DNA from: a phage
DNA length: 64,000 bases
Sequence record: PX246731.1
Direction: 5' to 3' (one strand)
Below are positions 25,202-39,273 of the stretch, piece by piece. The notes under the pieces were generated by a model. That model saw only the letters and a list, made by a program, of their open reading frames with translations, was not told the origin of the DNA and made no database searches. The position numbers and the translations under genes are program-made. Each line of letters starts with the position of its first letter. Position 1 is the first letter of the stretch.

Positions 25202-25755
25202 TGAAAATCCCAATTGTCGGTGCAGACATTAGTCTCCGCAATTGGGGTTTAGCTCGTGGGATGCTGGACATTGAGTCCGGCGTCTTCGAGCAGGTCGAAC
25301 TTAAACTGGTTCAAACTGAAGTTGACCACAACAAACAAGTTCGAACCAACTCCAAAGATATACAAGCCGCTCACGATTTGTTTCTTGGTTGTGAGGAATG
25401 GTTACGGTCTGCTAAAGCAGTATTCGTAGAAGTACCAGTAGGCTCTCAGTCTGCTAACGGTATGAAATCCTATGGCGTATGCGTAGGATTAATAGGTGCA
25501 TTTCGTGCATTGGGTTGTCCAATCTTTGAAGTATCCCCAATTGAAAACAAACTTGCACTGGTCGGTGATAAAACTGCATCCAAGGACACGATGATTCGTG
25601 CTGCTCATGCCATCTATCCTGAAGCCAACTGGCTCACGGATAAGAAAGGCAAACTTCTGAATAAGAATGAGCACTTAGCAGATGCAATCGGTGCAATCCA
25701 TGCTGGTGTAAATCTCCCAGCTTTCCAGAACCTCATTAAATTATTAAAGGCGTAA
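25201..25755 (+). CDS. RuvC-like Holliday junction resolvase
   Basis: IVGADISLRNWGLA resembles the RuvC N-terminal catalytic motif, and LADAIGAIHAG the C-terminal RuvC motif. Confidence 0.55.
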   Translation: MKIPIVGADISLRNWGLARGMLDIESGVFEQVELKLVQTEVDHNKQVRTNSKDIQAAHDLFLGCEEWLRSAKAVFVEVPVGSQSANGMKSYGVCVGLIGAFRALGCPIFEVSPIENKLALVGDKTASKDTMIRAAHAIYPEANWLTDKKGKLLNKNEHLADAIGAIHAGVNLPAFQNLIKLLKA

Positions 25756-25756
25756 T

Positions 25757-26203
25757 ATGCAAATCATTTTGAACCAGTCCGAAGTAGAAGCTGCTGTACA
25801 GGCTTATGTCGATGATCAAATCAATCTTGCTGGTGACATCAATATTGTCATCAATGCAGATGGTACTGCCTCCGTTGGTATTAATGAAGAGGTAAGTCAT
25901 GATGATGACACCCCACCCGTGGTAGAGAAGAAGACTCGTCGTTCTCGTAAGAACCCACAAGAAGCTAAACATCGTCCGGTAGAACCAGAACCGGAAGAAG
26001 TAGCTGAAGAGGTAAAGGTAGAAGAAACCCAGACCTCTACTGGTGGTCAGAACGAGAGTTCTACGCCGGAACCTGAAGAAGAAGAAGCAGTAACTGAACC
26101 AGAAGCACAAGAAGAAGTTGTGCAGGAAGAAGTTAAGGCTGAAGAACCAGCAGAAAAACCTGCTACTAAGCCTTCACTGTTCGCTGGCCTTAAACGTAGT
26201 TAA
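25757..26203 (+). CDS. highly acidic low-complexity protein
   Basis: The C-terminal two-thirds is E/P/T-rich (PEPEEVAEEVKVEE, EPEEEEAVTEPEAQEEVVQEEVKAEEP). Confidence 0.45.
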   Translation: MQIILNQSEVEAAVQAYVDDQINLAGDINIVINADGTASVGINEEVSHDDDTPPVVEKKTRRSRKNPQEAKHRPVEPEPEEVAEEVKVEETQTSTGGQNESSTPEPEEEEAVTEPEAQEEVVQEEVKAEEPAEKPATKPSLFAGLKRS

Positions 26204-26434
26204 TCTGGTAGGTGGCTCAGAAGCTGCTGCTAGGTGTGGTAGTGTTTATAGTCCTGATGCTACTACTGGTCAGGATTATAGACGTGTCGGCTCCATACAT
26301 AGCTTTTATCATCACTGTCATTATCCTGTGGAAATGCAGTGGTAAACACGGTGGTGACAAGCCGCCAGAGTAACAACAACCGAACCAGTGTGCAGGAATA
26401 CTCTCCCCTGTGCATTGGTTCAACTGAGGCCAAT

Positions 26435-26605
26435 ATGAACAAATTTACTATTCACTGGTTTAATGGAAAGGTTAGTTCTTTCATGGGTGGAGAACCTGCT
26501 GAAGGAAAGAAAGCATTTCACATTGAATCAGAAGGCTGCAAAATCTTAGTACCGTATGTTTGGTATAAAGATGGTGAAGTAGAAGCATTAAAAAAGAGTA
26601 GTTAA
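26435..26605 (+). CDS. hypothetical small protein
   Basis: 56-aa ORF from an internal ATG with tgagg RBS (ORF track 26339..26605). Confidence 0.3.
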   Translation: MNKFTIHWFNGKVSSFMGGEPAEGKKAFHIESEGCKILVPYVWYKDGEVEALKKSS

Positions 26606-27185
26606 TATCGTGAAGGGTTCTGTTAGAATCCTTTGAGATAGGAACTCCTATCATAACCTTTCTTAACTTAATCTTTGCCGTATGGCACTGACGCTAGGGT
26701 TGATGCCCATCCGTCAGTTAGACTATTTTAAGAATGGGTTATCACAGAAAATGTAAAGCAACATTCGGGTTAATCAATGGCCTCTCCCTATATGGGCCAT
26801 TTCTGAATCTTAGGCTATATCCCAAAGGTTAGTATCTTTGGGATAAGGCTTCAGATCCCTTATCAAACTAACGCTCATGTTGAGCACAACATTAACCCTT
26901 AATGTCGGATAGTTCATTAGGCTATTCCTCCAACATCGAGATGTTAGGTCTTACATGTAAGCTAAAACATAGGGTAAAGAGGGACTTGTCATCCCTCCCC
27001 TATTATGACATCCTATCAATGAGTACATTAAGCTAACGTGCGGAGGTTTACACTGTAGCCGGTGTAGATAGAGAAGACGGCAGGATAGCTACCTGTGCTT
27101 AGTGTACTCTTTGATAGGTTGTGCTATCAAAGTCCAGACGATATCTGAGTGACTTTAAAAACAGATGGAGCCAGGTGGAATCCCT

Positions 27186-27261
27186 GGCAATTAATTCCGG
27201 TGTAGGTACTAGTGTCGTGCACGGCATGAGCATTCTGGTTCGAGTCCAGACGCCGGAACCA
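27186..27261 (+). tRNA. tRNA-like gene 1 (3' half well defined; 5' boundary approximate)
   Basis: T-arm tctgg-ttcgagt-ccaga (27234-27250), 3' acceptor strand cgccgga (27251-57), discriminator A, encoded CCA (27259-61). A complementary tccggtg lies at 27196-27202, only 63 nt upstream, so the cloverleaf could not be completed by hand. Confidence 0.45.
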
Positions 27262-27263
27262 AT

Positions 27264-27387
27264 TACCAGTTGCACGAGATGGCTTGACATGTTCAAGTTT
27301 GGACTAAGTATGACACCGCTAGATTGGAGGGCTGCTGCGGTAAGCTATAGACTCCAACCGGGGGTTCGAATCCCTCACTGGTAACCA
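27264..27387 (+). tRNA. tRNA-like gene 2 (possibly carrying an insertion; boundaries approximate)
   Basis: T-arm ggggg-ttcgaat-ccctc (27360-76), 3' acceptor strand actggta (27377-83), A, CCA (27385-87). The only perfectly complementary 5' strand, taccagt, is at 27264-70, giving about 121 nt, longer than a canonical tRNA. Confidence 0.4.
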
Positions 27388-27439
27388 ATTCAAAGTAGCA
27401 TTGTGATAATCCATCCCGGAGTTCAAAGGCCAAACATGG

Positions 27440-27514
27440 AGCAGTGCTACTTTGAATTAGAAGAATTATGGCGGGTCTGGTGAAGTAGATGGGGTTCGAT
27501 TCCCTCCGGTGGGT
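27440..27514 (+). tRNA. tRNA-like element 3 (T-arm/acceptor-like 3' half; uncertain)
   Basis: ggggttcgattccctc T-arm-like motif at 27491-27506 followed by cggtggg; no convincing 5' acceptor strand found by hand. Confidence 0.3.
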
Positions 27515-27581
27515 AAAACCACTAGCGTGCTTGGTGCACGAATAAGACTTAATACTGGTGGTTCGATTCCATCCCCCGTTA
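27509..27581 (+). tRNA. tRNA-like element 4 (uncertain)
   Basis: T-arm ggtgg-ttcgatt-ccatc (27557-73), 3' acceptor-like ccccgtt (27574-80); partial 5' complement ggtgggt at 27509-15 (73-nt span). Candidate anticodon hairpin at 27525-41 with UGG in a 7-nt loop. No encoded CCA. Confidence 0.35.
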
Positions 27582-27890
27582 TTTGAAGTCGCCAGGTACT
27601 TATGGCAAACGGGTAGTAACGAACTAGTCATTCGTCAAACGCCCACCTTATTATGAGTCAGCAAGAACGCCTTCACTTAAACTTAAACAAAAAAAAGCTT
27701 AACGCAATAATTATGTAGGGGTATGTAAGGATTGCGAAGAAGGAGCCAGTTAAAGCCTGGCATGACTCAACTTATTAATAGAGAACATAGTCCTGATTGC
27801 ATTGCACTCTAAAGACAATGCCGGTGAGACAGTCCGGCACTCTAATTATTGTAAACATACAAGACTCGTTAGCTGCGTTAAAGCTACTAA

Positions 27891-27918
27891 GTCCCTCTTC
27901 GGAGGGACTTTTTTATTT
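27891..27918 (+). terminator. Rho-independent terminator
   Basis: Stem gtccctc(27891-97)/gagggac(27902-08) with 4-nt loop, followed by ttttttattt. Confidence 0.7.
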
Positions 27919-27978
27919 GAGTATTAATAAGCGCAACCATGTTTAAGTACAAATTCAAACCACTCTATGAGGCTAATA

Positions 27979-28359
27979 ATGGCAACAGTAAGTAAAGAAG
28001 CAATCGAATCTAAGATTAAGAGCGTTTACTATTTCAATGAAGCTGATGCAGTGAAGTCTGCATTCGTTGACCCATCCGCACTTCCAGCAGATGATTTGAC
28101 TAACCTGGGTCTGACAACCCATTGCATTATCATCTTGGAAAATGGCTTCAAAGTTGAAGGTGTCTCTGCCTGTGTAGACCCGGCTATCTATGATGAGCAA
28201 AAGGGTCGTCAGTATGCATATGAAAATGCATTCAATAAGATTTGGGAATTAGAGGGTTACCTGCTACGTCAGGCACTGCATGAGAAAGAAGAGACTGCTA
28301 AGGCTCTGGCTTCCTTTGCAGAAAACAATACCTGTGATGGTGGTGGTTGTACAATCTGA
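27979..28359 (+). CDS. hypothetical protein
   Basis: ATG 27979 with gagg RBS (ORF track 27967); C-terminal CDGGGC; isolated plus-strand gene between the tRNA region and the late block. Confidence 0.45.
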   Translation: MATVSKEAIESKIKSVYYFNEADAVKSAFVDPSALPADDLTNLGLTTHCIIILENGFKVEGVSACVDPAIYDEQKGRQYAYENAFNKIWELEGYLLRQALHEKEETAKALASFAENNTCDGGGCTI

Positions 28360-28440
28360 TCCAAAGGAGTAAGGTAGTTTTTACCGAAAGGTACTGAACT
28401 ACCCGACAAGTAGCAAGGCTCATGAAGCCAGTAAAATAAA

Positions 28441-28469
28441 AGCCCCTCTAATGAAGGGCTTTTTCATTT
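28441..28469. terminator. Bidirectional terminator hairpin between convergent genes
   Basis: Stem agcccct(28441-47)/agggct(28455-60) flanked by A-runs upstream and T-runs downstream; sits at the 3' ends of the plus-strand gene 27979..28359 and the minus-strand vRNAP gene. Confidence 0.6.
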
Positions 28470-31400
28470 AGTTAGTGAGGTTGAGCCATGGGTTCAGGGT
28501 ATGGGCACGTAAACCTTGTCCGAAACCGAAGGAGTAACCGAGATTACCCTGTGCAGCAATGCTAAAGATGTTGTCCTGAATAGGTAAACCAACGTTACCA
28601 AACATGGTAGGAGTTGGTGCTAACATAGCCATAGCAGCATGTACCGGGTTATTACGAATCATGGACACTGCAACTTTTGCAGAACGAATCTTAAAGTTGT
28701 AGAACCACATTAAACCAACACTTTCCATATATCCACGGAAGCGTCCTGGTAAACGGTCATAGTTAATGAACTCTTCCGTTACACGTCCTAGTGCTTCTTC
28801 ACGAGTCTTACCCTTACGCTGAGTCAGTTCATCATAAATGATTGCTTTAGCGATAAAGTCAGAGTACTCAACTGTCTTCTGAATACCCTGGAACAGAGCA
28901 GTATCCTTAGTGATAAGTGCATAACGACCAGCGTTACGTACAGACTTAGGCAGCTTATCAGCCAGCTTATCCATGTATTCGTGAAGTTTACCTTCAGTAA
29001 TCAGAATGTCATCACGCCCGATACCAGCATCTGCAATTGAAGAGAACTCTCCAGCTTCCAACAGAGGCCAGATACTCAAACGTTTATGGCTATCAGAGAT
29101 GGACTGAATCTCAGCCTTAAGTTTACGAATCTGGTTCGGGTTAGTAGCTGCACGTAATTCTGCTTCTGCATCTACCTGACGCAGACGAGATTTCAAGTAC
29201 TGGTTAATCTCAGCAGTTTTCTGTGGAATGCTCTTAGCAATATTCTTAACAGGTACACCACGAGCAACCATCTGGTAAAGGTTAGCCAGGAAGTTAACAG
29301 CAGGTACGACTACTGACTTAACTACAATCAGAGTCTTAGCTTCTTTAACTAAGTTCTGAACCAGGTTCTCACCACCCATTACGTACTTATAGGCACGGTT
29401 ACCAAATACACCCAGCATAGCTTTCTTGAAGGTATCCAGTGTTTCTGGGGACCAACGAGAATTACCAGACCAGGCATCACCAACAGAAGCTGCACGATAA
29501 CCAAGAGCATCATTCAGCATGTCACGACGTACCCACAATTCACCAGGACCAAACAGACTTTCTGCTTTCTGACGTGTTTCGCTGTTCATCAGTTTAAGAG
29601 CATCAGCAGTTACTGGGTCCAGTTTAGAACCAAGAAGGTTAACGTACTGGGACTTATTAGAGGCAGACATCTTAATGTCGTTCTCATACATGCTATGCAG
29701 GTTCTCAATCAGCATATCGTTGAAACGCTGAGCCTTAGCCTCTTCTACCTGACGTCCACGCCATACACCGATTGCACGAGCAAGATGGTTCTCACCTTCA
29801 ATATGCTTCAGCATGTTAGGGTCAATAGATTGCTCGTAAGCAACCACATTGCCATTGGCATCATATACAGGCAGCAGGGGTTCATTACCACGTTCACCAC
29901 GAGCCAGTGCTTTAGTGATACGGTCTACGGAAGGCTTGTCAGTAATACGACCAGCTACCATGGTTCCCATCGTAAAGCCTGTACCTAGGTCTACACCACC
30001 AGCAGTATTACGAACGTTCTGCAGGATACCCTGTGAGAATGGAGCCTGTGCCTGTACTGGTGCAAAGTAGTAGCTACGAGCAGAACCACGATTAGCAGAG
30101 CTACCCTGATACGTACCCAGTCGTACATAGGATTTCTCAATCAAATCAGCAAACTGACTATCTTCAGCAACAATCAGGTTAACGCCCTGTTTAGTTTCAC
30201 CAGGAATATACCCTTTGTACTGGTTCAGGGTTGCACGGCTATCAGACTTGGCTTTAGCCATTTCATCTTTACGCTGACCAACCAGGTAAGAAGTAGCAAA
30301 GTCCATGCCTTCAATTTCTGTCTGAGCCAGCGAAGATAACATCTCACGGTCAATCTTATTCATTGCTTCCAGTGCATATAGGGTAATGAGTTTATCCAGC
30401 TGAGCTACATCAACAACAGAACGTGTAGTCTTACGTTCACCAAGCAAGCGAGAAATTGCAGTAGCATTACGCAGTAGGTTATTACCAACTGTACCATTAA
30501 TCATGTACTGAGCCAGTTGCTTAGATTTACGATTAATCAGAGGCCAGTTACGCCCTGCTTGTTTCTGCAAATCTGCTTCCAGTTTATTAACCTCACGGTC
30601 AACAATCTTCTGGTCAGTCAGCAGGTCACGGATTTCATCCAGAGACATAGTGTCACGTAGAACAGCTAAGTCAGTTTTACCCATACCGGTATGCATTGCT
30701 TTCCACTCATCGTTGGTCAGCTTACGGCTGAACTTAGCTGCGATAGTGGTAGGCAAGTGTTCACGGAACTGTTGACGGTCAGCCTGTACCTGTGCACGTA
30801 CTGCTTTAATCAAATCATACACAGAAGCATTGCTCTTAGTACGTCCGATTATGTCATTAACCAGGTCATGGAAAGGTTGCCATACTTTACCCTGATTCAT
30901 TGCAGCCATAACACCCTCAGCTACGATTGAACCATTCTTCTCTGTAGCAATAGCAGCTACCAGTTGTGCAGCATGAGCAGCACCTTTAACCAGTGGGTTC
31001 TTGGTATTAGCTGCAACTTCACGAGCACCTTCCAGAGCACGGGTAGACAGTACATCAATAGAGTCCACCAGATACTGGTTAGCACGGTCAATAGCATTAC
31101 CAGTAGGAGTAGCAACGGAATCATAGAAGGACTCTGCATTAAGACTGGTCTGCATGATTGTCTGAGCCAGTGCATCCATACCTTCCTGTACGTTAGTGGC
31201 TTTAGTATCACCTGCTACACGAGCATTCAGACTAGCCATTGCAGCAGTACCGATGTTAGTCAGCATTGCATCAACAGTATTGCCTGACTTCTTATCCGCT
31301 TTCATAACAGGAATATCAGCCAGTACCTTACGTACCTCTTCACTTACCATTGCCAGACCTACAAAGGTAGGCAGCAAGGAAGAACGACCCTGTGCATCAA

Positions 31401-34400
31401 ACTCAATATTGTTAGCACCCATGATGGTATCGAACTTCTGCTGTGCATAGTAACGGTCAGCAGGGTTAGTACTATCCGGGTCAGCCATGAACGCTTCAAC
31501 AGTCAAGTTCTTAGTAACGTGTGTGTAGTATTCCTGTGCACGAGCCATAGCAGCAGGATTAATAGCAGCCTCGGTAGCCAGTGCAGCAACAATGTTAGTA
31601 AAGAGACGCTGTTCCTGCATATTCATGGTGAAGCCATGAGCCTGAACATCACGGGTTACTTTAGTTGCATTCACTACTGCATCAGAGAACTTACCTTTAC
31701 GAATTACTTGCTGTACTGGTTCTGAACCAATGTAGTTAGTAATTAGCTTATCGAAGGTTTTCCCTAACTCTTCCAGACGAGTATTGTCACCATATGCTTT
31801 GTTATGGAACAGGGTAGTGTCCTTAGCTACAGCAGCAGTAGGAGCTTGCCCACGCATTACTACAGCAGAGTTAAACAGTAAGCCAGAGAACATATCATCT
31901 GCATTAGCTGGAGCTTTCTTACGACCAAATACCAGACGTTTGATTGCTTCGTATACAGCCTGAACCATAGTTTTAAGTGCAGTGGTTTTCTTCTGCTTAC
32001 TAATCAGTTCTCGGTTGGTTAAACCCCAAGCCATGTACTCGTTCAGTGCAGCAGCTTTAGCCATTGCTGGTTCAATGAAGCCATTAGACAAGTGACCATT
32101 AATGGTATTAAGTGCATCAGCATATGCTTCACGTACTGCCGGAGATTCATCATTAACATCCAGAGCACGGAACTGGTTCATCAGGTCTTCAATATTCTGG
32201 ACAGCTTCATTAGGAGTACCTTCGTAGTGAGCCAGTACAGATTCAAAAGTAGAAGCATGTACCAATTCATGAACCAGAGTCTCTAATGAAGGAGTAACTA
32301 AGTAGATGGTCTTATCTTCAAAGTTAGTCCAGCCATATGCATTACCTGCTTCAGCAGCCTCAATATCTTCTGGTGCTGGGCGAGTAATATTCTTCTCAAT
32401 AGCATAGGCATCCAGTTGAGAAGGTGTACCATAAACAACCTTATAGTCTTTAGCAGCAAGGGATTTCTGTATTTCTTTCAATACTTCTTGCTGTTCAGGA
32501 GACATCTCTTTAGCCAATTTAGTAATAGCAGTATTAGACAGCAGACGTACACCAGATTTCAGTACACGACCAACTTGTTCCATTGCTGGTACTTCTTTCA
32601 CTGGTTCTGCTTTAGCAGCACGTACTGCATCACGACGCTTGTTTAATTCAGCATCAAACAGTTCGTTCAGCTTAGCTACTTGCTGGTCTACAGTAAGCCC
32701 TTCCAGAGAGATTTTACCGTTGTTCACATAAGGAGCACCAACAGCAGCCATCTGGTCAACAGTGACTTGTACCTGGTCCATTACCTTGTGACGAATATCT
32801 ACACCCAGGGCAATGTTACGCAGATTACGCTCAATCAATGCAATACCAGAATCCTTAATCATAGAAATTTTATAATCTCTATCACCATCTACTCTGGCAA
32901 TATGAGTACGTTGCTCAAAGTCTAAAGCAGACTTTGCAATAGCATCTATTGCTGAATCGGACAGCTTATTTAAATCAACATTCTTAACAAACTTAGAGAA
33001 AGACTCATAAACATTCTTGATAGGGTTACCCTGCCAGGAAGTGTATACAGCCTCATTAGCTTTACGGCTTGCATCAGTAATGTCATTGATACCAATGTTC
33101 ATACCATCAAAGATTTTAAGGGTATTCTTCGGAGCACCCTTCATAGTAGAAAGAGTCTGCATCATCATGCCATCACCAGTACCAATGGTCATAAATGGAA
33201 TACCTGCAACACCTGCTTGTGAAGGAGCATAGATGCTCATTGGCACACGCATACGGTCATCTAAGTTGGTAGCCAATACTTGGTTAGCAACATCAGTATT
33301 CTCGCTGCCAGCAATGTAGAAAGTCTGGGAACCAGTCTCAATCATTGGAGCCAGTGGTGCTAAACTATTCTGAATTTCATTCAGTTCTTTCTGTGTTAAG
33401 AAATCACCCTTCTTCCATGTTGGGTCTTTTTCTTTTTCTGCCAGTTTAGCCTGTACTGCCTGTTGGAACATATCCTGCAATACCAGAGATTGAATCTGAG
33501 TAGCCTTCTGCAAGTTCTCCGTAGATTGCATTAACCCATCGCCAACAGTGAATCGGATACCTTGTCTCATTGGCTCAACAAAGAAGTGCAGCATATTCTC
33601 TTGTAAGTTCTTAAGAGCATCTCCGGATACGGTAAACTCCTGGGGGTCTAACTTACCAGTCAGAACACCATCTACTTCTTTAATGAATAACTTACCTTTA
33701 CGCTTAGCTGGAATATTACCAGTCAATGCTTTCATAGAAGTAAGGAAGGTATCCAGCATAGCCTGAGCATCAGCCTCAGAAGCAGCCTCCTTACCAAACA
33801 TCGCCATAGCTGGGGAAATGTTAGGGTCAACAGCACGGGCTTTCAGAACGTCGCTTAGACGCTCATAGATGGTATCAGTAATTGCACTTACCATCTTGCC
33901 TGCAATACCACGAGCACCAGAACCATAAATGGTAATAGTCAGTGGGTTTTTAGCGATACCACGCTTCAGGTCCAGAGTACCATCTTCATTAAGATTGAAG
34001 TCTTTGATGAACAGGTCCATTAACTTCTGGAGATGGTCCATCTGGTTTATAACAGGAATATTTTTACTATAAGCATTGCGTAATTCATTTAGATAGAATT
34101 GCAGACTATTAGTAGATGCTTCATACAGGTCAACACTGTCTTCCTGAGTATGATGCTCATTCATGGTCTTACCGGCTTTACCGAAGAACAAACCACCTTT
34201 GGCAGTATTCTTAATCCAGTTTGGAGTGAACTTACCACCGGTCATTAATACCATTGCGTTGATTGGACCGTTGGTTACACCATCGGCTTCAACGTACAGT
34301 GGGGTATTAAAGTTGGCACGGTCATCACTGTTAAGGTAACGGGCATATTCCATAAGAGCCATAAGAGCTACAAAGGATTTATCATTACCCAAAGAGGTCG

Positions 34401-37400
34401 TCAGAATATTCACTGCATCGGTAGGTAAGTATCCAGACTTATCAAACTCAACCATCATATCTACAGCAGGTTTCAGCTTACCTTCCAGAGCTTTGGTAAG
34501 TTCCTCTGACATAGTTTCACGAGTCATTTTATGAACTTTGATACCCAATGCCTGAGCCAGTCCAAGCTGGAAGCCTGAGAAGTCTTCATTGTTCTGGTTC
34601 GATAAATCCAGAGTAGCTTTGGTAGGTAAGATAGCCTCACGAACTAGCTTAGCTGATTGAGGGTTATATTTACCTAACATCTGCATACGACCAACACGGG
34701 TCATATTGTAAGCATAGTGAATAGGTACAGAAGAAATGTCTTCACTCTGTGCTCTTACCTGTTCAATAACAGAGAACAATTGGTTGTAAGAATCCTCTAC
34801 TGAACGGTTTTTACCTTCCAGAGATTTAGCATGGTTCTTATTAAGTAAATCCTTATCCAGAGTACCAGCACCCATCAATTCGAGAATACGGTCTTTACCT
34901 AAAGCCTCATAGAACTGAACCATTGGGGTATGCACAAAGAACTCTGTAGCCTGCTCTGCTTTAAGGGCAGCTTTCTGTTCCGGAGTATTACGGACAGCAG
35001 GGTTACGTAACTGAGTATGAGCCACGGGAGGAATGTCATCACCGAAATACAGTTTCTCTACTGGTTCTACGAGGACAGCTTCCTCGATAGCAGTAGGGAA
35101 TTTGTTAATAGCGTCGGTATCATCCAGCTTCTCAATGGTATACAGACCAATAGTCTTATTGGATTCTGGGTCAATTTCAGACACATCCAGCATGGACTCT
35201 TTAACTTCACCCATTTCAATAAGGGAAGACAGAATCTCTGTAGCCATTGCCATCGGGATACCTTTGGTATAACCAAGTGGTGCATCAGCATTACGATTAA
35301 GTCCCCAGTAAGATTCAATCTTTTGAGCCAGTGAGTTAGTAGCTTCTACTAAGGTTTGTGCATTCTCAAATTCTGCGAGGATACCTTCTGGTAACAAGGA
35401 AGCATTTACACCAGTAATTGCAGCCACATCCTGCATGTCTTTAATAGCAGCATTCTGTGTAGCAGTAAGTCGCCATTGCAGACCAGCAAGTACAGCAGTC
35501 TCTAACAACTGGTCATTGAACTTAAAGGTGTCTCCGTCTTTCTCTACGATATTAAGTAACTTACCACCTACCCAACGGTTAGCTTCAGTACCTTCTGCAA
35601 AACGTTTACCAACGTTCTTGTTAGCAAGGAATTTAGCCAGACGGTCAGACAAAGTAGTCTTCAGAGTTTCACCAAACTCAAATAAGTCCTGGTAACGCTT
35701 AATCACATCACTTGTGAGAGCGTTATTTTCTTTTTGAGTAAATGCTTCAAAACGAGCAGCAGAAGACAGTGCTTTCTTAACATCAGTTAAAGGAGATTCA
35801 GAACCAATGGTACGGGACTTAGGTTCTTCTGGCAGACTAAATGCTTTAAGGAACTGGTTCGGTGTCTTTTCATTGTTATAGACAGGGAACACTGCTTCCA
35901 TTCCCGATAGAGGTTTACCACCAACAGTATAGTCTGCTTTCAGTTGAGCCAGTGATACTTCTTCTTTCTCAACATTATTGGTATTAAGCCCAGATGTATC
36001 TACACCAATCTGAATCAGTGCATTGTTTGCTTCTACGAATGATTGAACAGTATTGAATTGTTCAGCAGTTAGCTTCTGATTATCAAACAATTGCAGAGAT
36101 ACGAACGGTTGCTCACTACCTTTATAGAAAGTAGAACGTACAGCACCAGTATCCAGAGACATGTCACGATAACCATCATGACCAAATACGTCAGACAGAC
36201 TGATATGGTCGCCATTGGAACCAACAACAGTACCATCAGCGAATAGCCATGGACTATCTCTACGGTCACCATACTTATTAAGAGTATCTTGTGAAATAGT
36301 ATTCTCTTTCACATAAGAATCTCTTTCAGATTCAGTAGGCTGTTCAACGATATCCTGTTTTTCAGACTGGTTCTCAGGTTCTTTTACGGTTTGTGGTTTA
36401 GACTCTTTAATAGTAGGTTCTGTTTTAACAGCTTCACTAACAGAGGGTTTAGTCTGTACAGTAGGGGTAACTGGTTCCTGTTTTATAACAGGAGCTTCAT
36501 CAACCTGATTCACTGGTTCATTGGTCTGTTGGGATTGAGCAGCATCAAGATTGCCCTGACGGAACTCTTTAACTACCTGGGCAGCAGGTTTGTCCAGACG
36601 TGAATCCAATGGGGTAACTTTCACATGAGAAACATTAAGCTCCGGGTAAGCCGTAGCAAGTGCGTTAGCAATATCAGCTACGGTCTTGGCTTCCAGTCCT
36701 ACTTGCTGGGCAAACTTAACAGACTTGGTATCATACGGATTGACACCGAGGCCAGTACGACTACGTACCCATTCACGCGAGGGAGTAAGAGCCTGATAAT
36801 GGACAGACTTATTCTTATCCGCATTCCCAGAAATCAAATGCTCATTCAATGCTCCGACCTTATTCTGCATGTGCTGGGCGAACTTCATAAAGTCGTCGAG
36901 ATAAGCGGAAGCCAAATCGAAGTTACCAGAGTTGTACGCAGAACGAATGCGTTTAGCATGTTGCAACGCAGAGTACTGGCCTTCATTAGAACGAGATTCG
37001 TCGGTTTTAATCTGTTTACTAACAATGTCTTGAGGACGTAAGCCTAGTTCTTCTGCTTTAGCGTCAAATTCTCGTGCTCCTTGCAATAAAGCAGCAGCAG
37101 ATTGCAGGGCAGCACGCTGACGATTACCCAGTGTAATCTTACCTTCACTTGCATGTTTCAGAACCATGTTCACTGAATCCGCATCCAGCACTTCTGGAGA
37201 CATATCAGCAGCCATAGCAATGTTGTTTGCCTGAGCTTGGTTAGCTTTTTCAGTAGCTTTCAGTTTACCTGCTTCAGCCTGTTCCTGAATCATAGAATGG
37301 ATGGCACGGAATGCACGGAGTACCTTCGGTGTATTCTGAACATTAGCCATCAGGCCAGAGAATTGGTCAACAATATTAGCAGCAGGAGAACCCTGTTCCA

Positions 37401-39273
37401 GATTAGCCAGAGCACCCGGGTCACGGTTAATGAAGCTATCCATAGACATGATGTTGTCATACATCTGGATTGCAGCTTCCATTTGAACGTTAGGGTCTTC
37501 GGCAGTATTAACCAAGTCAGCCATCTTCTGAATAGCTTCAACACGGTTAGTGGAACCAGAAACAGCTTCACGGATTGCCGGGCTAGCCTGTTCCAGTTCT
37601 ACTGGGTCAAACTTCATTACCTGAGTTAAGTCAGCAGCATACTGTGTAGCAGCAGCTTTCTCTTCAGGAGAAATGTCCATTGCATCTACTGCTTCCTGAA
37701 CAGTTGCCTGTGCCTGTTCTGCCTGAGCAGTAGCTTCTTGTGCAGCAGCGTTAACCGTAGCATCAGATACAGGGGATGCTTGCTCATTACGCTTAGCAAC
37801 TTCTTCACCACGCTGAACCAGGATGTTAGTAATAGGTGAAGCTACTTTCGCTAATGCTTTACCAGCCAGAGAAGCACCAGCCAGGGTAGTACGTACAGCA
37901 GGACCTACGGCAGCACCAGCAGCCTTAACAGTTGCACCAGGAGCTTGAGCAACTCCAGCACTACCGAAGCCATACAGTGCACCAAGCCCGGTTTGTTCAC
38001 CCACACCTTTAAGCAAATCACGATTAGCATCTACATTACCTTGAATTGCTTTGTTCTGTGCAAACTGACTTGTACCAGACTGGATACCTTCTTCTACAGT
38101 CTCACGCAGCATGTTAGAACCAGCTCCAGCCAGTGAACCTACCTTAAGTGGGTTAAGTTCAAACTTGGATACCAGTGGAGCAGTAAGAGCAGCAACTGGA
38201 GCAGTTAAGCCAGCAGCAGTGATACCTGTTTCAGATGCAGTCTGACGACGTGCTTCTTCAGGAGACAGACCATCTTTAATATGCTGTTGGTATACAGGAG
38301 ATTTAGCAGCCAGTTCACTGAACGGCATTTCCATAATTTCATTAGCAGTCTGCTGGTATGCACCACCAGCTTCCATACCACCAATTGCTATAGCAGGTGC
38401 AGCAACACGACCAGTAGCTAATGCAGTACGTGCAGGACGCGAACCTAATTCAGCAGCTAGGGTAATACCCTTAACAGCTTTATCACCACCTACCATTACT
38501 TTACCAAGTGCAGATACACCACGGATAAGTGGACCACCAGTAAACAATGAACCAACACCCTCAGCCAGACCATCTGTAGCAGCCATGCCATTAGATAAGG
38601 TGTTAGCAACAGAATCATAAGCATCACGACCAATTCGAGATAGGGAAGCAACGAGTTCACTTTCTCCTTTATCAATATCTTGCTTATAGAGTTTCTCATT
38701 CTCCTGAGCAGATATTACGTTCTGGTTCTGTACTACATTACGGCGAGCATTCAGTGCATCAGACTGTAGGTTGTGTACACCTTTATTTAACCAGTCAAGA
38801 CCGGAAGCAGTGGATGCCCCGGCATTATCATTGACCAAACCTGTGCCAAGAGCAGCAATGCCCCCAAGGGTATTAGCAACACCAAGACCAACACCAGAAA
38901 GGGTATCACCAAGTGCTTCACCATATGTACGACTCTTAGTTAAATCACGACGAACAGCATTAGCTGCATTGACACGAGCATTGAGAATGTCCATTCCTTG
39001 CTCATTGCCATACTTGTTTATGATTTCAAGAGGAGAGGCATTAGTAAAATCTGCCTGAATAGAACCTGGGTTAAATGCACCAGCACCTAAGTTACCAGCA
39101 CGGCCTGCCTGTAATTGGTAGGCGTTCTGTGGGGTTAATTGGAAAGGGTTTTGCCCTTGTTCAGCTTGTTTCCGAGAGGTTGCAGTAGAGACATCGACTT
39201 GCTTAGCAGTAGTGATGCTGTCTGCGAAACCTGCCAGACGGTCAAATGTTGACATAGCATGATTCCTGTTCAA
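28468..39273 (-). CDS. virion-encapsidated RNA polymerase (N4 vRNAP-like giant protein)
   Basis: Single uninterrupted 3601-aa ORF. A roughly 3500-aa virion RNA polymerase is the hallmark of N4-like phages, and the position at the start of the minus-strand late block matches N4 gp50. Confidence 0.8.
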   Translation of the reverse strand: MNRNHAMSTFDRLAGFADSITTAKQVDVSTATSRKQAEQGQNPFQLTPQNAYQLQAGRAGNLGAGAFNPGSIQADFTNASPLEIINKYGNEQGMDILNARVNAANAVRRDLTKSRTYGEALGDTLSGVGLGVANTLGGIAALGTGLVNDNAGASTASGLDWLNKGVHNLQSDALNARRNVVQNQNVISAQENEKLYKQDIDKGESELVASLSRIGRDAYDSVANTLSNGMAATDGLAEGVGSLFTGGPLIRGVSALGKVMVGGDKAVKGITLAAELGSRPARTALATGRVAAPAIAIGGMEAGGAYQQTANEIMEMPFSELAAKSPVYQQHIKDGLSPEEARRQTASETGITAAGLTAPVAALTAPLVSKFELNPLKVGSLAGAGSNMLRETVEEGIQSGTSQFAQNKAIQGNVDANRDLLKGVGEQTGLGALYGFGSAGVAQAPGATVKAAGAAVGPAVRTTLAGASLAGKALAKVASPITNILVQRGEEVAKRNEQASPVSDATVNAAAQEATAQAEQAQATVQEAVDAMDISPEEKAAATQYAADLTQVMKFDPVELEQASPAIREAVSGSTNRVEAIQKMADLVNTAEDPNVQMEAAIQMYDNIMSMDSFINRDPGALANLEQGSPAANIVDQFSGLMANVQNTPKVLRAFRAIHSMIQEQAEAGKLKATEKANQAQANNIAMAADMSPEVLDADSVNMVLKHASEGKITLGNRQRAALQSAAALLQGAREFDAKAEELGLRPQDIVSKQIKTDESRSNEGQYSALQHAKRIRSAYNSGNFDLASAYLDDFMKFAQHMQNKVGALNEHLISGNADKNKSVHYQALTPSREWVRSRTGLGVNPYDTKSVKFAQQVGLEAKTVADIANALATAYPELNVSHVKVTPLDSRLDKPAAQVVKEFRQGNLDAAQSQQTNEPVNQVDEAPVIKQEPVTPTVQTKPSVSEAVKTEPTIKESKPQTVKEPENQSEKQDIVEQPTESERDSYVKENTISQDTLNKYGDRRDSPWLFADGTVVGSNGDHISLSDVFGHDGYRDMSLDTGAVRSTFYKGSEQPFVSLQLFDNQKLTAEQFNTVQSFVEANNALIQIGVDTSGLNTNNVEKEEVSLAQLKADYTVGGKPLSGMEAVFPVYNNEKTPNQFLKAFSLPEEPKSRTIGSESPLTDVKKALSSAARFEAFTQKENNALTSDVIKRYQDLFEFGETLKTTLSDRLAKFLANKNVGKRFAEGTEANRWVGGKLLNIVEKDGDTFKFNDQLLETAVLAGLQWRLTATQNAAIKDMQDVAAITGVNASLLPEGILAEFENAQTLVEATNSLAQKIESYWGLNRNADAPLGYTKGIPMAMATEILSSLIEMGEVKESMLDVSEIDPESNKTIGLYTIEKLDDTDAINKFPTAIEEAVLVEPVEKLYFGDDIPPVAHTQLRNPAVRNTPEQKAALKAEQATEFFVHTPMVQFYEALGKDRILELMGAGTLDKDLLNKNHAKSLEGKNRSVEDSYNQLFSVIEQVRAQSEDISSVPIHYAYNMTRVGRMQMLGKYNPQSAKLVREAILPTKATLDLSNQNNEDFSGFQLGLAQALGIKVHKMTRETMSEELTKALEGKLKPAVDMMVEFDKSGYLPTDAVNILTTSLGNDKSFVALMALMEYARYLNSDDRANFNTPLYVEADGVTNGPINAMVLMTGGKFTPNWIKNTAKGGLFFGKAGKTMNEHHTQEDSVDLYEASTNSLQFYLNELRNAYSKNIPVINQMDHLQKLMDLFIKDFNLNEDGTLDLKRGIAKNPLTITIYGSGARGIAGKMVSAITDTIYERLSDVLKARAVDPNISPAMAMFGKEAASEADAQAMLDTFLTSMKALTGNIPAKRKGKLFIKEVDGVLTGKLDPQEFTVSGDALKNLQENMLHFFVEPMRQGIRFTVGDGLMQSTENLQKATQIQSLVLQDMFQQAVQAKLAEKEKDPTWKKGDFLTQKELNEIQNSLAPLAPMIETGSQTFYIAGSENTDVANQVLATNLDDRMRVPMSIYAPSQAGVAGIPFMTIGTGDGMMMQTLSTMKGAPKNTLKIFDGMNIGINDITDASRKANEAVYTSWQGNPIKNVYESFSKFVKNVDLNKLSDSAIDAIAKSALDFEQRTHIARVDGDRDYKISMIKDSGIALIERNLRNIALGVDIRHKVMDQVQVTVDQMAAVGAPYVNNGKISLEGLTVDQQVAKLNELFDAELNKRRDAVRAAKAEPVKEVPAMEQVGRVLKSGVRLLSNTAITKLAKEMSPEQQEVLKEIQKSLAAKDYKVVYGTPSQLDAYAIEKNITRPAPEDIEAAEAGNAYGWTNFEDKTIYLVTPSLETLVHELVHASTFESVLAHYEGTPNEAVQNIEDLMNQFRALDVNDESPAVREAYADALNTINGHLSNGFIEPAMAKAAALNEYMAWGLTNRELISKQKKTTALKTMVQAVYEAIKRLVFGRKKAPANADDMFSGLLFNSAVVMRGQAPTAAVAKDTTLFHNKAYGDNTRLEELGKTFDKLITNYIGSEPVQQVIRKGKFSDAVVNATKVTRDVQAHGFTMNMQEQRLFTNIVAALATEAAINPAAMARAQEYYTHVTKNLTVEAFMADPDSTNPADRYYAQQKFDTIMGANNIEFDAQGRSSLLPTFVGLAMVSEEVRKVLADIPVMKADKKSGNTVDAMLTNIGTAAMASLNARVAGDTKATNVQEGMDALAQTIMQTSLNAESFYDSVATPTGNAIDRANQYLVDSIDVLSTRALEGAREVAANTKNPLVKGAAHAAQLVAAIATEKNGSIVAEGVMAAMNQGKVWQPFHDLVNDIIGRTKSNASVYDLIKAVRAQVQADRQQFREHLPTTIAAKFSRKLTNDEWKAMHTGMGKTDLAVLRDTMSLDEIRDLLTDQKIVDREVNKLEADLQKQAGRNWPLINRKSKQLAQYMINGTVGNNLLRNATAISRLLGERKTTRSVVDVAQLDKLITLYALEAMNKIDREMLSSLAQTEIEGMDFATSYLVGQRKDEMAKAKSDSRATLNQYKGYIPGETKQGVNLIVAEDSQFADLIEKSYVRLGTYQGSSANRGSARSYYFAPVQAQAPFSQGILQNVRNTAGGVDLGTGFTMGTMVAGRITDKPSVDRITKALARGERGNEPLLPVYDANGNVVAYEQSIDPNMLKHIEGENHLARAIGVWRGRQVEEAKAQRFNDMLIENLHSMYENDIKMSASNKSQYVNLLGSKLDPVTADALKLMNSETRQKAESLFGPGELWVRRDMLNDALGYRAASVGDAWSGNSRWSPETLDTFKKAMLGVFGNRAYKYVMGGENLVQNLVKEAKTLIVVKSVVVPAVNFLANLYQMVARGVPVKNIAKSIPQKTAEINQYLKSRLRQVDAEAELRAATNPNQIRKLKAEIQSISDSHKRLSIWPLLEAGEFSSIADAGIGRDDILITEGKLHEYMDKLADKLPKSVRNAGRYALITKDTALFQGIQKTVEYSDFIAKAIIYDELTQRKGKTREEALGRVTEEFINYDRLPGRFRGYMESVGLMWFYNFKIRSAKVAVSMIRNNPVHAAMAMLAPTPTMFGNVGLPIQDNIFSIAAQGNLGYSFGFGQGLRAHTLNPWLNLTN

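Follow-up and report, generated by a model that had tools for sequence, protein, structure and literature searches.

Predicted structured RNA modules shared between a G7C-like coliphage and phiEco32-like phages

Introduction

Annotation of phage genomes deals almost entirely with proteins. The stable RNAs of T4 known as species 1 and species 2 (band C/D) lie in the tRNA cluster of that phage, measure about 120-140 nt and carry tRNA-like 3' ends. GOLLD and ROOL are large multi-domain RNAs with variable peripheral domains, often found beside phage or prophage tRNA genes, in elements that infect Firmicutes or bacteria of lakes and the rumen. The intercistronic RNase III hairpins of T7, located in an early operon, are single structures of about 60 nt with no conserved multi-helix elements beside them. 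They are not known to recur in other phage families, and the duplex requirement of RNase III is known from T7 and lambda sites. N4 vRNAP promoters, located in the early (left-end) region, consist of a 5-7-bp stem with a 3-nt loop. The promoter-early stem-loops (PeSL) of T4-type phages, which are conserved intergenic sequences, reportedly delimit shuffled modules and favour their exchange between co-infecting phages. In the Pseudomonas N4-like phage LUZ7, an intergenic region gives rise to abundant RNAs of less than 250 nt, sRNA1-3, detected by ONT-cappable-seq; one apparently arises by processing, and expression is late, from an own start site (PMC9163698).

Here we describe a non-coding region of a G7C-like, N4-type coliphage of the genus Gamaleyavirus (sequence record PX246731.1), analysed within a stretch of 64,000 nucleotides that we refer to as the window and from whose first letter all positions are counted. 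Our favoured reading, to which we give a somewhat better than even chance, is that positions 26606-27122 hold a series of conserved RNA modules, read from the + strand and each folding independently: module A, with the domain D3 inside its second hairpin, followed by module B (Table 1). Genome comparison indicates that these 500 bp are a mosaic of separable cassettes common to phiEco32-like phages, a property invisible from a single sequence.

Results

A non-coding, hairpin-rich island

The region forms the 5' part (26606-27122) of a 1.35-kb non-coding island between gp47.2 and gp48, and the gap between gp47 and gp48 is non-coding across all relatives compared. The first-pass annotation had seen no convincing ORF here, and this held up: only ORFs of 32-44 aa are present, with no conservation of frame or position among 21 relatives. 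A protein-coding gene was likewise rejected, as ORFs of 25-53 aa come and go among homologues and 1-nt indels fall in the conserved part; Kuraviruses use another frame for the homologous stretch, and the shared block GTTAGGTCTTACATG is likewise read in different frames. The region had also been placed between convergent early and late blocks. It lies instead inside the + strand (middle-gene) block, and gp48 and a terminator separate it from the end of the vRNAP gene.

Table 1. Features of the region and its surroundings (positions in the window)
Feature	Position	Strand	Remarks
gp47.2 stop codon (TAA)	26603-26605	+	Directly before module A
Module A, composite structured RNA cassette	26606-27006	+	Starts right after the gp47.2 stop, ends at ...CCCCTATTAT
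H1, 10-bp hairpin with 3-nt loop (GUGAAGGGUUCU-GUU-AGAAUCCUUU)	26612-26634	+	Paired in 46/46 distinct homologues
H2a, GAUAGG-AACU-CCUAUC	26637-26652	+	5' copy of the duplicated H2 stem; invariant in Gamaleyavirus
D3, three-way junction inside the second hairpin of module A	26653-26747	+	Covariation; z -4.5
Two small hairpins (AAUGU/ACAUU, AAUGGCC/GGCCAUU) closed by UCGGG/UCUGA	26750-26806	+	RNAalifold; Gamaleyavirus only
Long imperfect 21-bp hairpin	26807-26856	+	Alternative to H2b; z -5.4; inverted repeat I3
H2b, GAUAAGG-CUUCAGAUC-CCUUAUC	26843-26865	+	7-bp stem, sequence-conserved 9-nt loop; covariation
P3 domain, long-range CUAAC (26868-26872) / GUUAG (26943-26947)	26868-26947	+	Variable hairpins inside
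GUCUUACAUG	26948-26957	+	Mostly unpaired; belongs to the block GUUAG(G/A)UCUUACAUG
Terminal bulged hairpin: outer AUAGGG/CCCUAU, 4-nt bulge UAAA, inner GAGGGA/UCCCUC	26969-27003	+
Module B, long hairpin with ~24-bp outer stem and small branched interior	27008-27122	+	z -6.6
Fourth hairpin (UUUGAUAG-GUUGUG-CUAUCAAA)	27110-27131	+	Overlap with the module B 3' arm; extends into the following cassette
Strong terminator	27889-27915	+	Nearest + strand intrinsic site to 26606-27100, at 27889-27910
gp48	27967-28359		Between the hairpin region and the vRNAP gene end
vRNAP gene end	28468

About 500 bp of hairpin-rich, non-coding DNA had been reported at this place, and all four hairpins named there are real. 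The cccaaag/ctttggg stem (26821-26827/26836-26842) lengthens to 10 bp (26818-26827/26836-26845) and then into the long imperfect hairpin. Because the gataagg/ccttatc stem (26843-26849/26859-26865) draws on the same 'gata', the two are in part mutually exclusive. The gaggga/tccctc hairpin (26979-26984/26992-26997) is nested within the outer stem ATAGGG/CCCTAT (26969-26974/26998-27003). The fourth, tttgatag/ctatcaaa, is present at 27110-27117/27124-27131, but beyond position 27100, where the hairpin-rich stretch had been said to end.

The + strand of 26606-27140 folds with RNAfold at -185.3 kcal/mol, compared with -136.3 +/- 6.4 kcal/mol for 100 shuffles, none of which reached its energy (z = -7.70). 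With a z of -6.88 for the - strand, and with D3 folding slightly better on that strand, thermodynamics does not tell the strands apart. On the + strand, the folding signal is found in sub-domains 26653-26745 (z -4.5), 26807-26866 (z -5.4) and 27008-27124 (z -6.6); 26746-26806 (z -0.65) and 26946-27008 (z -1.1) show no significant folding alone. The predicted hairpins of 26750-26806 are almost invariant and therefore uninformative, making this the weakest part of the model, with 26746-26806 lacking independent support.

tRNA genes and known RNA families

The first-pass annotation had set the region upstream of a tRNA-like cluster. Remnants with T-arms do occur downstream, at 27131-27600, but tRNA calls are zero window-wide: ARAGORN reports no gene in the window, and RF00005 is unmatched even at E <= 10 in 26300-28000. 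Three to five Rfam-confirmed tRNA genes occupy the position of module A in the related N4-like genera represented by N4, KP8 and Moo19. These arrays, the clear T-arm motifs of the downstream remnants and a weak pseudo-tRNA at 27026-27105, inside module B, that ARAGORN returns at a lowered threshold could indicate a decayed tRNA array or neutral spacer, eroded from the array seen in the other genera. We consider this extremely unlikely. The absence of any T-loop or cloverleaf signal from 26606-27006 already contradicts decay there, a tRNA remnant having been ruled out in that interval by ARAGORN (default and relaxed) and Rfam (E <= 10); the homologous element of phiEco32-like phages is not a tRNA, and the compensatory conservation of the stretch, presented below, argues against neutral decay.

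The Rfam scan that had been proposed as a check (Rfam 15, 4227 models) gave no match in the window at gathering score. At E <= 10, 26300-28000 yields 11 matches, among which GOLLD and ROOL are absent and the best sub-threshold ones are miRNA-type hairpin look-alikes with E > 1. In seven related loci, including those of Kuravirus, 7-11, N4 and KP8, Rfam recovers tRNAs only, and GOLLD and ROOL stay below gathering score throughout the window and these loci.

Helices are preserved by compensatory changes

Within Gamaleyavirus, 26606-26880 is almost invariant, with 4 of 108 predicted pairs informative. High identity inside the genus is weak evidence alone, since the neighbouring gp46 is equally conserved (98%). 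The genus being too uniform, the covariation test was taken outside it. The core alignment was structure-guided and hand-parsed, with the middle of module A left out; because MAFFT misaligns the middle of the full-length Kuravirus and 7-11 elements (placing ACTAAC on ACTAGC), only unambiguous blocks were tested.

The module A core (46 distinct sequences) is 95.1% paired, compared with 45-60% in slid controls. Both partners have changed in 11 of 36 pairs, against 0-2 in slid controls and 5.2 +/- 1.2 after shuffling (0 of 500 shuffles reach 11), in a comparison where the shuffles ignore phylogeny and the covariation rests on about 4-5 independent lineages, two Salmonella phages supplying most of the strong compensatory changes. 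For D3, the corresponding values are 87.8% pairing against 37-45% in slid controls, and 9 of 37 doubly changed pairs, where shuffling gives 3.9 +/- 0.9 and none of 500 shuffles gets to 9. Compensatory helices beyond both slid and shuffled controls, the mark of a structured RNA, were thus found for the module A core and for D3. With a plain MAFFT alignment as input, RNAalifold arrives independently at H1, H2, P3 and the terminal hairpin and counts 9 compensated pairs. The alignments show that these predicted helices are kept by compensatory and wobble changes among Gamaleyavirus, Kuravirus/Suseptimavirus and 7-11-like phages.

G.U cells far outnumber A.C cells, by about 121 to 4 in the core (hand tally) and 20 to 8 in D3, which points to a + strand RNA; the orientation of the cassette always follows the flanking genes. 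The suggestion of a small structured RNA, one of three offered by the first-pass annotation, is therefore the favoured one, given the compensatory helices in three lineages and this asymmetry.

A DNA-level element acting through DNA hairpins (an origin, single-strand initiation site, N4-type hairpin promoter or recombination hot spot) would account for hairpins on both strands, for the mosaic variants and precise junction indels that speak of frequent recombination, and for the perfect DnaA box TTATCCACA that ends the D3 copies of Kuraviruses and 7-11. We hold it to be very improbable. In DNA, the many conserved and strongly one-sided G.U pairs would amount to mismatches, G.T or A.C. Gamaleyavirus D3 has TTATCACAG in place of that box; no DnaA box lies in 26606-27960, nor any TTATNCACA (<=1 mismatch) in 25664-28916. 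Iterons or multi-copy direct repeats were not found in 26606-27100, GC content stays at 0.39-0.42 with no AT-rich dip, and the cumulative GC-skew maximum, near 28.5 kb, coincides with the switch of gene orientation. The replication origin proposed earlier finds no support in these results, nor in the unrelated replication and RNA polymerase systems of the carrier phages. An N4 vRNAP hairpin promoter was also rejected: the H1 stem has 10 bp with G.U pairs, not 5-7 bp, it sits in the middle-gene block, and its loop is 3 nt only in Gamaleyavirus and 4 nt in Kuravirus and 7-11 homologues.

Architecture of module A and D3

The structured-RNA reading is illustrated by the individual helices. Across lineages, pair 5 of H1 appears as G.U, A-U or G-C and pair 6 as U-A, U.G or C-G. 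The H2 stem is found as GAUAAGG/CCUUAUC in Gamaleyavirus (H2b), GAUAGGA/UCCUAUC in Kuravirus and GUUGAGG/CCUUGAC in 7-11, both sides having changed in 3 of 7 pairs. Kuraviruses possess a single H2 (GAUAGGA-CUUCAGAUC-UCCUAUC) where the window has H2a and H2b; these duplicates flank a Gamaleyavirus-specific insertion, and D3 is inserted within the duplicated hairpin. D3 itself comprises a closing stem UAACC/GGUUA, a hairpin GCC-GUAU-GGC and an arm CUGACG...CGUCAG with GGGU/GCCC. With its covariance model, D3 scores 105 bits in the window. Kuraviruses and 7-11 have it at loci of its own, which score 60-84 bits; there D3 stands alone ahead of a terminator, apart from module A, and a second, diverged copy is present. 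The long imperfect hairpin (4+5+12 bp) shows one compensatory change, U-A to C-G at 26820/26843 in ZQ2 and metagenome locus L084, and in 6 of 21 relatives a mismatch disrupts its pair 26823/26840.

P3 is predicted by RNAalifold independently in both alignments. Mimir124 has an A-to-G change giving G.U, and in 7-11 and pSal the helix is longer by a sixth pair, C-G; the interior is highly variable, with several variants, some common to Gamaleyavirus and Kuravirus phages. The block GUUAG(G/A)UCUUACAUG, which served as anchor for homologue searches, is near-invariant in the three lineages, with one G/A position and one further A-to-G change in PGN829. Judging by complementarity, GUCUUACAUG could pair with the H2b loop (AGAU/RUCU) or with the downstream AUAGG; for the loop pseudoknot (AGAU with GRUCU), which competes with P3, variation is slight and one U-to-C change is compatible. 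The inner 6-bp stem of the terminal hairpin is fully paired in 51/51 copies (46 distinct core sequences), in a register picked to maximise pairing between a purine-rich and a pyrimidine-rich strand; its forms include GGGAGG/CCUCCC, GAGGGA/UCCCUC, AGGGAG/CUCCCU and AGGCGG/CCGCCU.

A layout in which a G/C-rich hairpin and its U-rich tail come after a conserved core of several helices could be read as a riboswitch or attenuator, in which H1, H2 and the P3 junction form the sensor and the terminal hairpin the platform controlling downstream read-through. AUAGG can pair with the upstream GUCUUA or the downstream CCUAU, as a switch would require, and the inner stem pairs an SD-like GGGAGG with an anti-SD-like CCUCCC. 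This seems improbable to us: what follows module A differs among the window (RNA modules), phiEco32 (a small ORF), NJ01 and XT73 (a D5-like regulator) and 7-11 (other genes), the P3 interior is highly variable, the Gamaleyavirus U-tail is poor (CCCUAUUAUGAC), and an Rfam riboswitch match is absent.

Cassettes with sharp borders in unrelated phages

All phiEco32-like phages examined (Kuravirus, Suseptimavirus) carry a module A that lacks D3; in phiEco32 it lies between genes 101 and 100. XT73 carries a homologue, and Salmonella phages 7-11 and pSal-SNUABM-01 have a diverged version, again without D3. It occurs once per genome and measures about 400 nt in the window and about 240 nt in phiEco32-like phages. 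All Kuraviruses match, and 231 records match parts of the query, including other groups via its 3' modules only. In relatives, breakpoints fall on the borders of module A. A 77-bp tRNA-like insert sits precisely at 27006 in St11Ph5, ECBP1, Bp4 and pSb-1, and Kuravirus and 7-11 copies open with ..CGTGAAGG at a stop codon and close with CCCTATTT. With mosaic variants and exact cassette indels at the junctions, recombination in the region appears frequent. No match was found by tblastn when gp47, gp47.2, gp48 and two small ORFs were compared with 14 Kuravirus/7-11 loci. These comparisons show that the modules are discrete cassettes with sharp boundaries, that at the loci examined they moved between unrelated phages without a flanking protein gene, and that the sequences of several loops and linkers have hardly changed between Gamaleyavirus, Kuravirus/Suseptimavirus and 7-11-like phages.

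Wider searches added no lineage. Relatives of the gp47 protein in IMG/VR come from 9 loci only; scans with the pattern AATATCGTGAAGGNTTCT gave several chance matches in coding DNA and those with TGTTAGRTCTTACATG mostly chance matches. A longer gapped pattern, run on metagenomes and genomes, retrieved the three known lineages and two MAG contigs, one a Kuravirus-type copy and the other a chance match.

Transcriptional punctuation, also suggested by the first-pass annotation, survives in part. The predicted folds of module B and the long imperfect hairpin provide the ~20 bp or more of mostly continuous dsRNA that RNase III requires, and the tail after the terminal hairpin, CCCTATTATGAC, is weakly U-rich, but a consensus scan found no + strand intrinsic terminator, defined by a G+C-rich stem with a T run directly behind it, in 26606-27100, the weak site at 27093-27079 being on the - strand. 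In its full form this explanation makes the region cis-acting mRNA punctuation (RNase III sites, 3'-end protectors, weak terminators) with no trans-acting RNA, serving to separate or stabilise the upstream mRNA and shield an untranslated tract from Rho and RNases. It would fit the start of module A, always at the stop codon of a co-directional ORF, the 21-24-bp duplexes, the UUUAU or UUUUA after the terminal hairpin in Kuraviruses and 7-11, and a sigma-70-like TTGAAT-17-TATATA, read by eye, after that hairpin in phiEco32. We nevertheless judge it unlikely. Processing hairpins need neither the near-invariant CUUCAGAUC and GUUAGGUCUUACAUG kept between 7-11 and phiEco32 nor a conserved three-way junction such as D3, the terminator scan is negative for the + strand of 26606-27100, and the upstream ORF differs in each lineage, leaving no specific mRNA to protect.

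Module B and the downstream junction

The second of the proposed RNA modules, B, is found in only some Gamaleyaviruses. Its stem (3+8+13 bp with two mismatches) corresponds to the inverted repeat I1, whose 26-nt arms (27008-27033/27097-27122) are 88% complementary. Long stems of this kind but of different sequence occur in Gamaleyavirus subtype 2, Kuraviruses, KP8 and N4. The fourth hairpin excludes the base of this stem, and its N4 counterpart is weaker (UAAUAG...CUAUCA). The adjoining cassette, 27131-27190, is present and unannotated in 15 of 5426 E. coli genomes.

Discussion

As far as can be judged from sequence comparison, module A and its companions probably represent a new structured RNA family, located in a phage tRNA/RNA island and cut out as a stable small RNA. 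The island would be transcribed with or after the middle genes; host RNase III would cut module B, and perhaps the long imperfect hairpin, and RNase P the downstream tRNA-like elements. These cuts would free module A as a stable small RNA, about 400 nt long here and about 240 nt long in phiEco32-like phages. It may act on a factor that enterobacterial hosts have in common, and not on the phage's own transcription or replication proteins. Phages whose replication and transcription machinery is unrelated carry the cassette in their early operons. Its retention despite wholly different RNA polymerases and replication proteins, together with its passage between these groups in the absence of a protein gene, argues that the RNA works via the shared host.

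A broader possibility, which we put forward tentatively and regard as less probable than not by some distance, is that A, D3, B and the downstream tRNA-like elements form an undescribed class of swappable RNA accessory cassettes acting on a host factor. They would be swapped as units among unrelated virulent enterobacterial phages, one being insertable in the hairpin loop of another, and could serve as decoys or sponges, for example for a host nuclease, an RNA-binding protein or an RNA-sensing defence.

Stretches of 400-500 nt in the well-studied G7C/N4-like group, and of about 240 nt plus a second locus in each phiEco32-like phage examined, appear to encode folded RNA. No database gives the modules a name, and the papers checked on N4-like, phiEco32, 7-11 and SU10 phages do not mention them; only the LUZ7 paper proved relevant. 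Our analysis suggests that the N4-like 'tRNA region' is better viewed as a general RNA-gene island. If the RNA works via the host, it would be a candidate new host-directed or counter-defence RNA, in two phage groups that both feature in therapy cocktails and the BASEL collection. The module A core and D3, at the least, are new motifs for which Rfam-style seed alignments are now available.

Among known systems, the LUZ7 region is the one that shares the syntenic position: as in the window, it follows SSB, a gp46-like gene and two small ORFs and precedes the small ORFs ahead of the convergent vRNAP. It is about 400 nt long, non-coding, without tRNAs and strongly structured (z -6.2); the likeness lies in this position, as no sequence similarity was seen and the D3 model gives no match. 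GOLLD and ROOL differ in that the window RNA is built of cassettes that also occur separately. The T7 RNase III hairpins belong to the irregular 20-bp class, and the predicted module B and long imperfect hairpin fit them in size and position. PeSLs are short, a promoter plus one stem-loop, with many per genome, whereas module A spans 240-400 nt and occurs once; its promoter-like match at 26602-26629 is not conserved in Kuraviruses. With T4 species 1 and 2, the proposed RNAs would have in common that they are structured, lie beside phage tRNA genes, are co-transcribed with them and are released by host processing enzymes, a likeness that is closer for the elements at 27131-27388 than for module A.

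Cassette structure of the intergenic region

BLAST places the phage in Gamaleyavirus (G7C-like, Schitoviridae), with U1G, St11Ph5 and HK2 as its nearest relatives. A long plus-strand gene block ends in gp45 (SSB), gp46 and gp47, and the minus strand carries a 3601-aa ORF (28468-39273). The stretch 26606-27960 is non-coding in every relative compared and is closed by a strong intrinsic terminator (27889-27915); the first-pass annotation, which had seen no convincing ORF in 26606-27100, is borne out, as we found no conserved ORF there. Between gp47 and gp47.2, a strongly hydrophobic 53-aa plus-strand ORF (26212-26373; VAQKLLLGVVVFIVLMLLLVRIIDVSAPYIAFIITVIILW...) looks like a small membrane protein; similar DNA occurs in N4, and only some relatives annotate it. 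Only 109 nt (28360-28467) separate gp48 from the vRNAP gene end, and the window therefore lacks, like U1G and HK2, the gp49 homologue found between these genes in N4, ECBP1 and PhAPEC5. A bidirectional terminator (28438-28463) lies in this spacing.

Features of the intergenic region and diverged copies of its D3 domain in Kuraviruses
Feature	Location	Strand	Basis
gp47	25757-26203		annotated relatives
gp47.2	26339-26605		annotated relatives
Module A	26606-27006		block indels among relatives
H1 (hairpin)	26612-26634		
H2a (first H2 stem)	26637-26652		
D3 (three-way-junction domain)	26653-26747		
H2b (second H2 stem)	26843-26865		
Module B (long hairpin)	27008-27122		block indels among relatives
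gp48	27967-28359		annotated relatives
vRNAP gene end	28468		annotated relatives
Second D3 copy	L047 11353-11439	-	covariance model
Second D3 copy	L037 8124-8220	-	covariance model
Second D3 copy	L075 5333-5419	-	covariance model
Second D3 copy	L083 18-114	+	covariance model

Pairwise comparison of close relatives resolved the region into blocks set apart by exact indels, which define modules A and B. A 77-bp tRNA-like insert sits exactly at 27006 in St11Ph5, ECBP1, Bp4 and pSb-1, module B is carried by only some relatives, and the presence of tRNA-Ile at 27770-27779 varies. The sister genera represented by N4, KP8 and Moo19 have 3-5 genuine tRNA genes in the place of module A, which is thus Gamaleyavirus-specific among N4-like phages. 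Within the genus 26606-26880 is near-invariant, with 99% identity across 26601-26700 compared with 81-94% in gp47 and gp47.2 and 98% in gp46; the genus alone therefore offers few informative pairs (4 of 108).

tRNA and pseudo-tRNA genes come and go among relatives as exact cassettes (window 27006 and 27770-27779; L002 2203-2279 and L004 3368-3441 in other phages), with limits at most 2-3 nt from the mature tRNA ends and short repeated motifs, CCTATTAT or CTTATTA, as flanks. The 'tRNA-Ala(cgc)' of St11Ph5 falls below the Rfam tRNA threshold. Consecutive cassettes share the motif (C)CTATCA at their 5' edges, namely the H2a end (26647-26653), the start of module B (27012-27018) and that of the next cassette (27124-27130), and Kuravirus module starts show it too (CTATCAAACTAAC, ACTATCGGAGAG); the motif may serve recombination as a microhomology or mark a processing site. 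In phage ZQ2 an HNH homing endonuclease ORF (L019 1598-2095) stands just upstream of module A, at the place of gp47.2 in the window, and an enzyme of this type could help drive mosaic exchange here.

Homologues in unrelated phages

Sensitive BLAST recovered the same blocks in the same order within an intergenic gap of Kuravirus XT73, a podovirus of the phiEco32 type with no relationship to N4. Module A occurs in a 240-nt form in the Kuraviruses and Suseptimavirus of our phage collection, lying between early genes 101 and 100 in phiEco32, and Salmonella phage 7-11 (Grimontviridae) has a diverged copy, as do its relatives, pSal-SNUABM-01 among them. These elements open with ..CGTGAAGG, no more than 10 nt from a stop codon, and close with ..CCCTATTT. 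Kuravirus module A lacks the counterpart of window 26653-26842 and has a single hairpin, GAUAGGA-CUUCAGAUC-UCCUAUC, whereas in the window two related stems, H2a and H2b, bracket the extra 190 nt, of which D3 is the first 95. Scans of IMG/VR and of metagenome and genome collections with the conserved patterns revealed no lineage beyond Gamaleyavirus, Kuravirus/Suseptimavirus and the 7-11 group, and no protein common to the Gamaleyavirus and Kuravirus/7-11 flanks was found.

In every Kuravirus and in 7-11, D3 also has a counterpart at another locus, a short gap with a terminator at its end. A D3 covariance model detected a second, diverged Kuravirus copy, which scores 18-20 bits and has a matching location in four genomes; its core is GCUAGGGNGAG...CUCNAACAUCCG and its P3 stem differs (CACCG/CGGUG). 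In Kuraviruses and 7-11, D3 has the 3' edge GGTTATCCACAG, with a perfect DnaA box, TTATCCACA (L029 5375-5383 and the D3 copies of L067 and L068); in Gamaleyavirus this edge is GGTTATCACAG or GGTTATCTCAG, without the box.

Some types of the variable interior are found on both sides of the family border: AACCCAGCCCACTAAGGGGGCGGGAGTTTA occurs in both PhAPEC5 and phiEco32, and the CTCAATGTTGAGCATTTTAATCACATAAGCCCC type in ECBP1, Bp4 and F22 as well as ECBP2, NC-B and Bas88. In one metagenome contig, a Gamaleyavirus-type 5' part is joined to a Kuravirus-type 3' hairpin. The shared interiors and this hybrid indicate that exchange took place more than once. We show that the modules are autonomous, conserved RNA folds moving as cassettes.

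Folding and covariation

The four hairpins reported at the first pass all lie at their positions; the first two share four bases, and the fourth extends past 27100 and overlaps the 3' arm of a 26-nt inverted repeat (27008-27033/27097-27122). The plus strand of 26606-27140 folds at -185.3 kcal/mol against -136.3 +/- 6.4 by chance (z = -7.7), and the minus strand at z = -6.9. Folding energy tells neither strand from strand nor RNA from DNA. The signal is concentrated in 26653-26745 (z -4.5), 26807-26866 (z -5.4) and 27008-27124 (z -6.6); 26746-26806 and 26946-27008 are not significant alone.

The module A core was tested on 46 distinct sequences, using only the unambiguously aligning blocks: H1, H2, the long-range helix CUAAC/GUUAG and the terminal bulged hairpin. 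Standard pairs fill 95.1% of cells, compared with 45-60% after displacing the 3' partner by 1-3 columns, and both sides have changed in 11 of 36 pairs (0-2 after displacement; 5.2 +/- 1.2 in column shuffles, none of 500 reaching 11). Pair 5 of H1 is G.U in Gamaleyavirus, A-U in Kuravirus and G-C in the 7-11 group; H2 occurs as GAUAAGG/CCUUAUC, GAUAGGA/UCCUAUC and GUUGAGG/CCUUGAC around a 9-nt loop that hardly varies. For the inner terminal stem the forms are GAGGGA/UCCCUC, GGGAGG/CCUCCC and AGGCGG/CCGCCU, in a register picked for best pairing between purine-rich and pyrimidine-rich strands. RNAalifold returned the same four helices, with 9 compensated pairs, from an ordinary MAFFT alignment of 11 Kuravirus, 7-11 and pSal sequences.

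For D3 (16 sequences, tool-made alignment), pairing holds in 87.8% of cells, compared with 37-45% after sliding, and both partners have changed in 9 of 37 pairs (3.9 +/- 0.9 shuffled; 0/500 reach 9); its own P3 helix is 100% paired, with covariation in 3 of 6 pairs. The module B stem of ~21-24 bp is kept with quite different sequences in the window, a second Gamaleyavirus subtype, Kuraviruses, KP8 and N4. These statistics come from few independent lineages, with a shuffle control that ignores relatedness, and in the fold model 26746-26806 is the weakest part and the 26807-26856 hairpin and H2b are alternatives. A selected RNA structure is very probable.

The ratio of G.U to A.C cells is ~121 to 4 in the module A core (hand tally of the pair table) and 20 to 8 in D3, the pattern expected of a plus-strand RNA, unlike that of DNA hairpins or a minus-strand RNA. 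The element also has the orientation of its neighbouring genes throughout. The substitution pattern, unlike folding energy, decides for plus-strand RNA, and a DNA element is highly improbable. Among the roles proposed at the first pass, a structured RNA gains support from the selected helices and this asymmetry, a replication origin is unsupported, its hallmarks being absent, and transcriptional punctuation is possible for parts of the region.

tRNA-like cassettes downstream

A 134-nt cassette (27131-27264) matches phage N4 itself (EF056009 32803-32937) at ~95% identity, much higher than in the adjoining non-coding DNA, where BLAST finds little else between the two. The cassette ends in a tRNA-like minihelix that makes up its 3' half (acceptor UCCGGUG/CGCCGGA, T-arm CUGG-UUCGAGU-CCAG, then ACCA) in which a tetraloop hairpin substitutes for the anticodon arm. 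It is called by neither ARAGORN nor Rfam, and its label in N4-like records is 'tRNA-Undet'. Copies 86-93% identical to the first 60 nt of the cassette (27131-27190; AGTCCAGACGATATCTGAGTGACTTTAAAAACAGATGGAGCCAGGTGGAATCCCTGGCA) occur in the unrelated phages SopranoGao, 9NA, DS8, Segz_1, several temperate Klebsiella phages and XT73. Of 5426 complete E. coli genomes, 15 also carry this segment, without annotation; it is a candidate for a further mobile RNA cassette or for a fragment of an attachment site. Further tRNA-like elements (27265-27388, 27389-27600) combine an acceptor stem, a T-arm and CCA with oversized bodies; one of them spans 124 nt, TTACCAG.. to ..CTGGTAACCA. The T-arm motif repeats at 27357, 27487 and 27554, XT73 has a 135-nt analogue, and 27485-27582 is ~80% similar to DNA of the T4-like phages VR5, PEi20 and CkP1.

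Proposed function

The cassettes contain near-invariant unpaired segments, such as GUUAGGUCUUACAUG and CUUCAGAUC, and reside in operons read by quite different polymerases. The early genes of phiEco32 are transcribed by host sigma-70 RNAP (SU10 and phiEco32 literature), and the block in N4-like phages by phage RNAPII. The RNA would come from the gp45-gp47.2 transcript or have its own promoter nearby; a promoter-like match, TTAATA-16-TGTTAGAAT, overlaps H1 and is not conserved beyond the genus. An N4 vRNAP-type hairpin promoter at H1 was rejected on stem length, position and the 4-nt loops of homologues. Host enzymes would trim the RNA, with RNase III acting on module B and RNase P on the downstream tRNA-like elements, and the product may act on a host component common to E. 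coli, Shigella and Salmonella. We somewhat favor this processed, stable, trans-acting RNA, its sole experimental support being synteny with phage LUZ7. Module A is co-directional with its flanking ORFs in every case, and the ORFs themselves vary by lineage. The main rival, a purely cis-acting processing or stability element, is rather unlikely, and a cis switch improbable.

Comparison with known systems

No tRNA was called in the region, and the Rfam scan suggested at the first pass, run with Rfam 15, matched no family there. A decayed tRNA is scarcely credible. In LUZ7, an N4-like Pseudomonas phage, abundant RNAs of <250 nt arise from the intergenic region at the same map position (PMC9163698), which is equally structured. 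These RNAs, the stable RNAs of the T4 tRNA cluster, the large tRNA-adjacent GOLLD and ROOL, T7 RNase III sites and T4 PeSL cassettes are near analogues in kind, but the window's RNA belongs to none of them. Since Rfam is blank, the elements go unmentioned in the checked papers on G7C/N4-like, phiEco32, SU10 and 7-11 phages, and they fall outside these analogues, we class them as a new RNA family, or two, among the phage-encoded structured RNAs of tRNA/RNA islands: a clean, testable and unannotated family with mobility across phage families.
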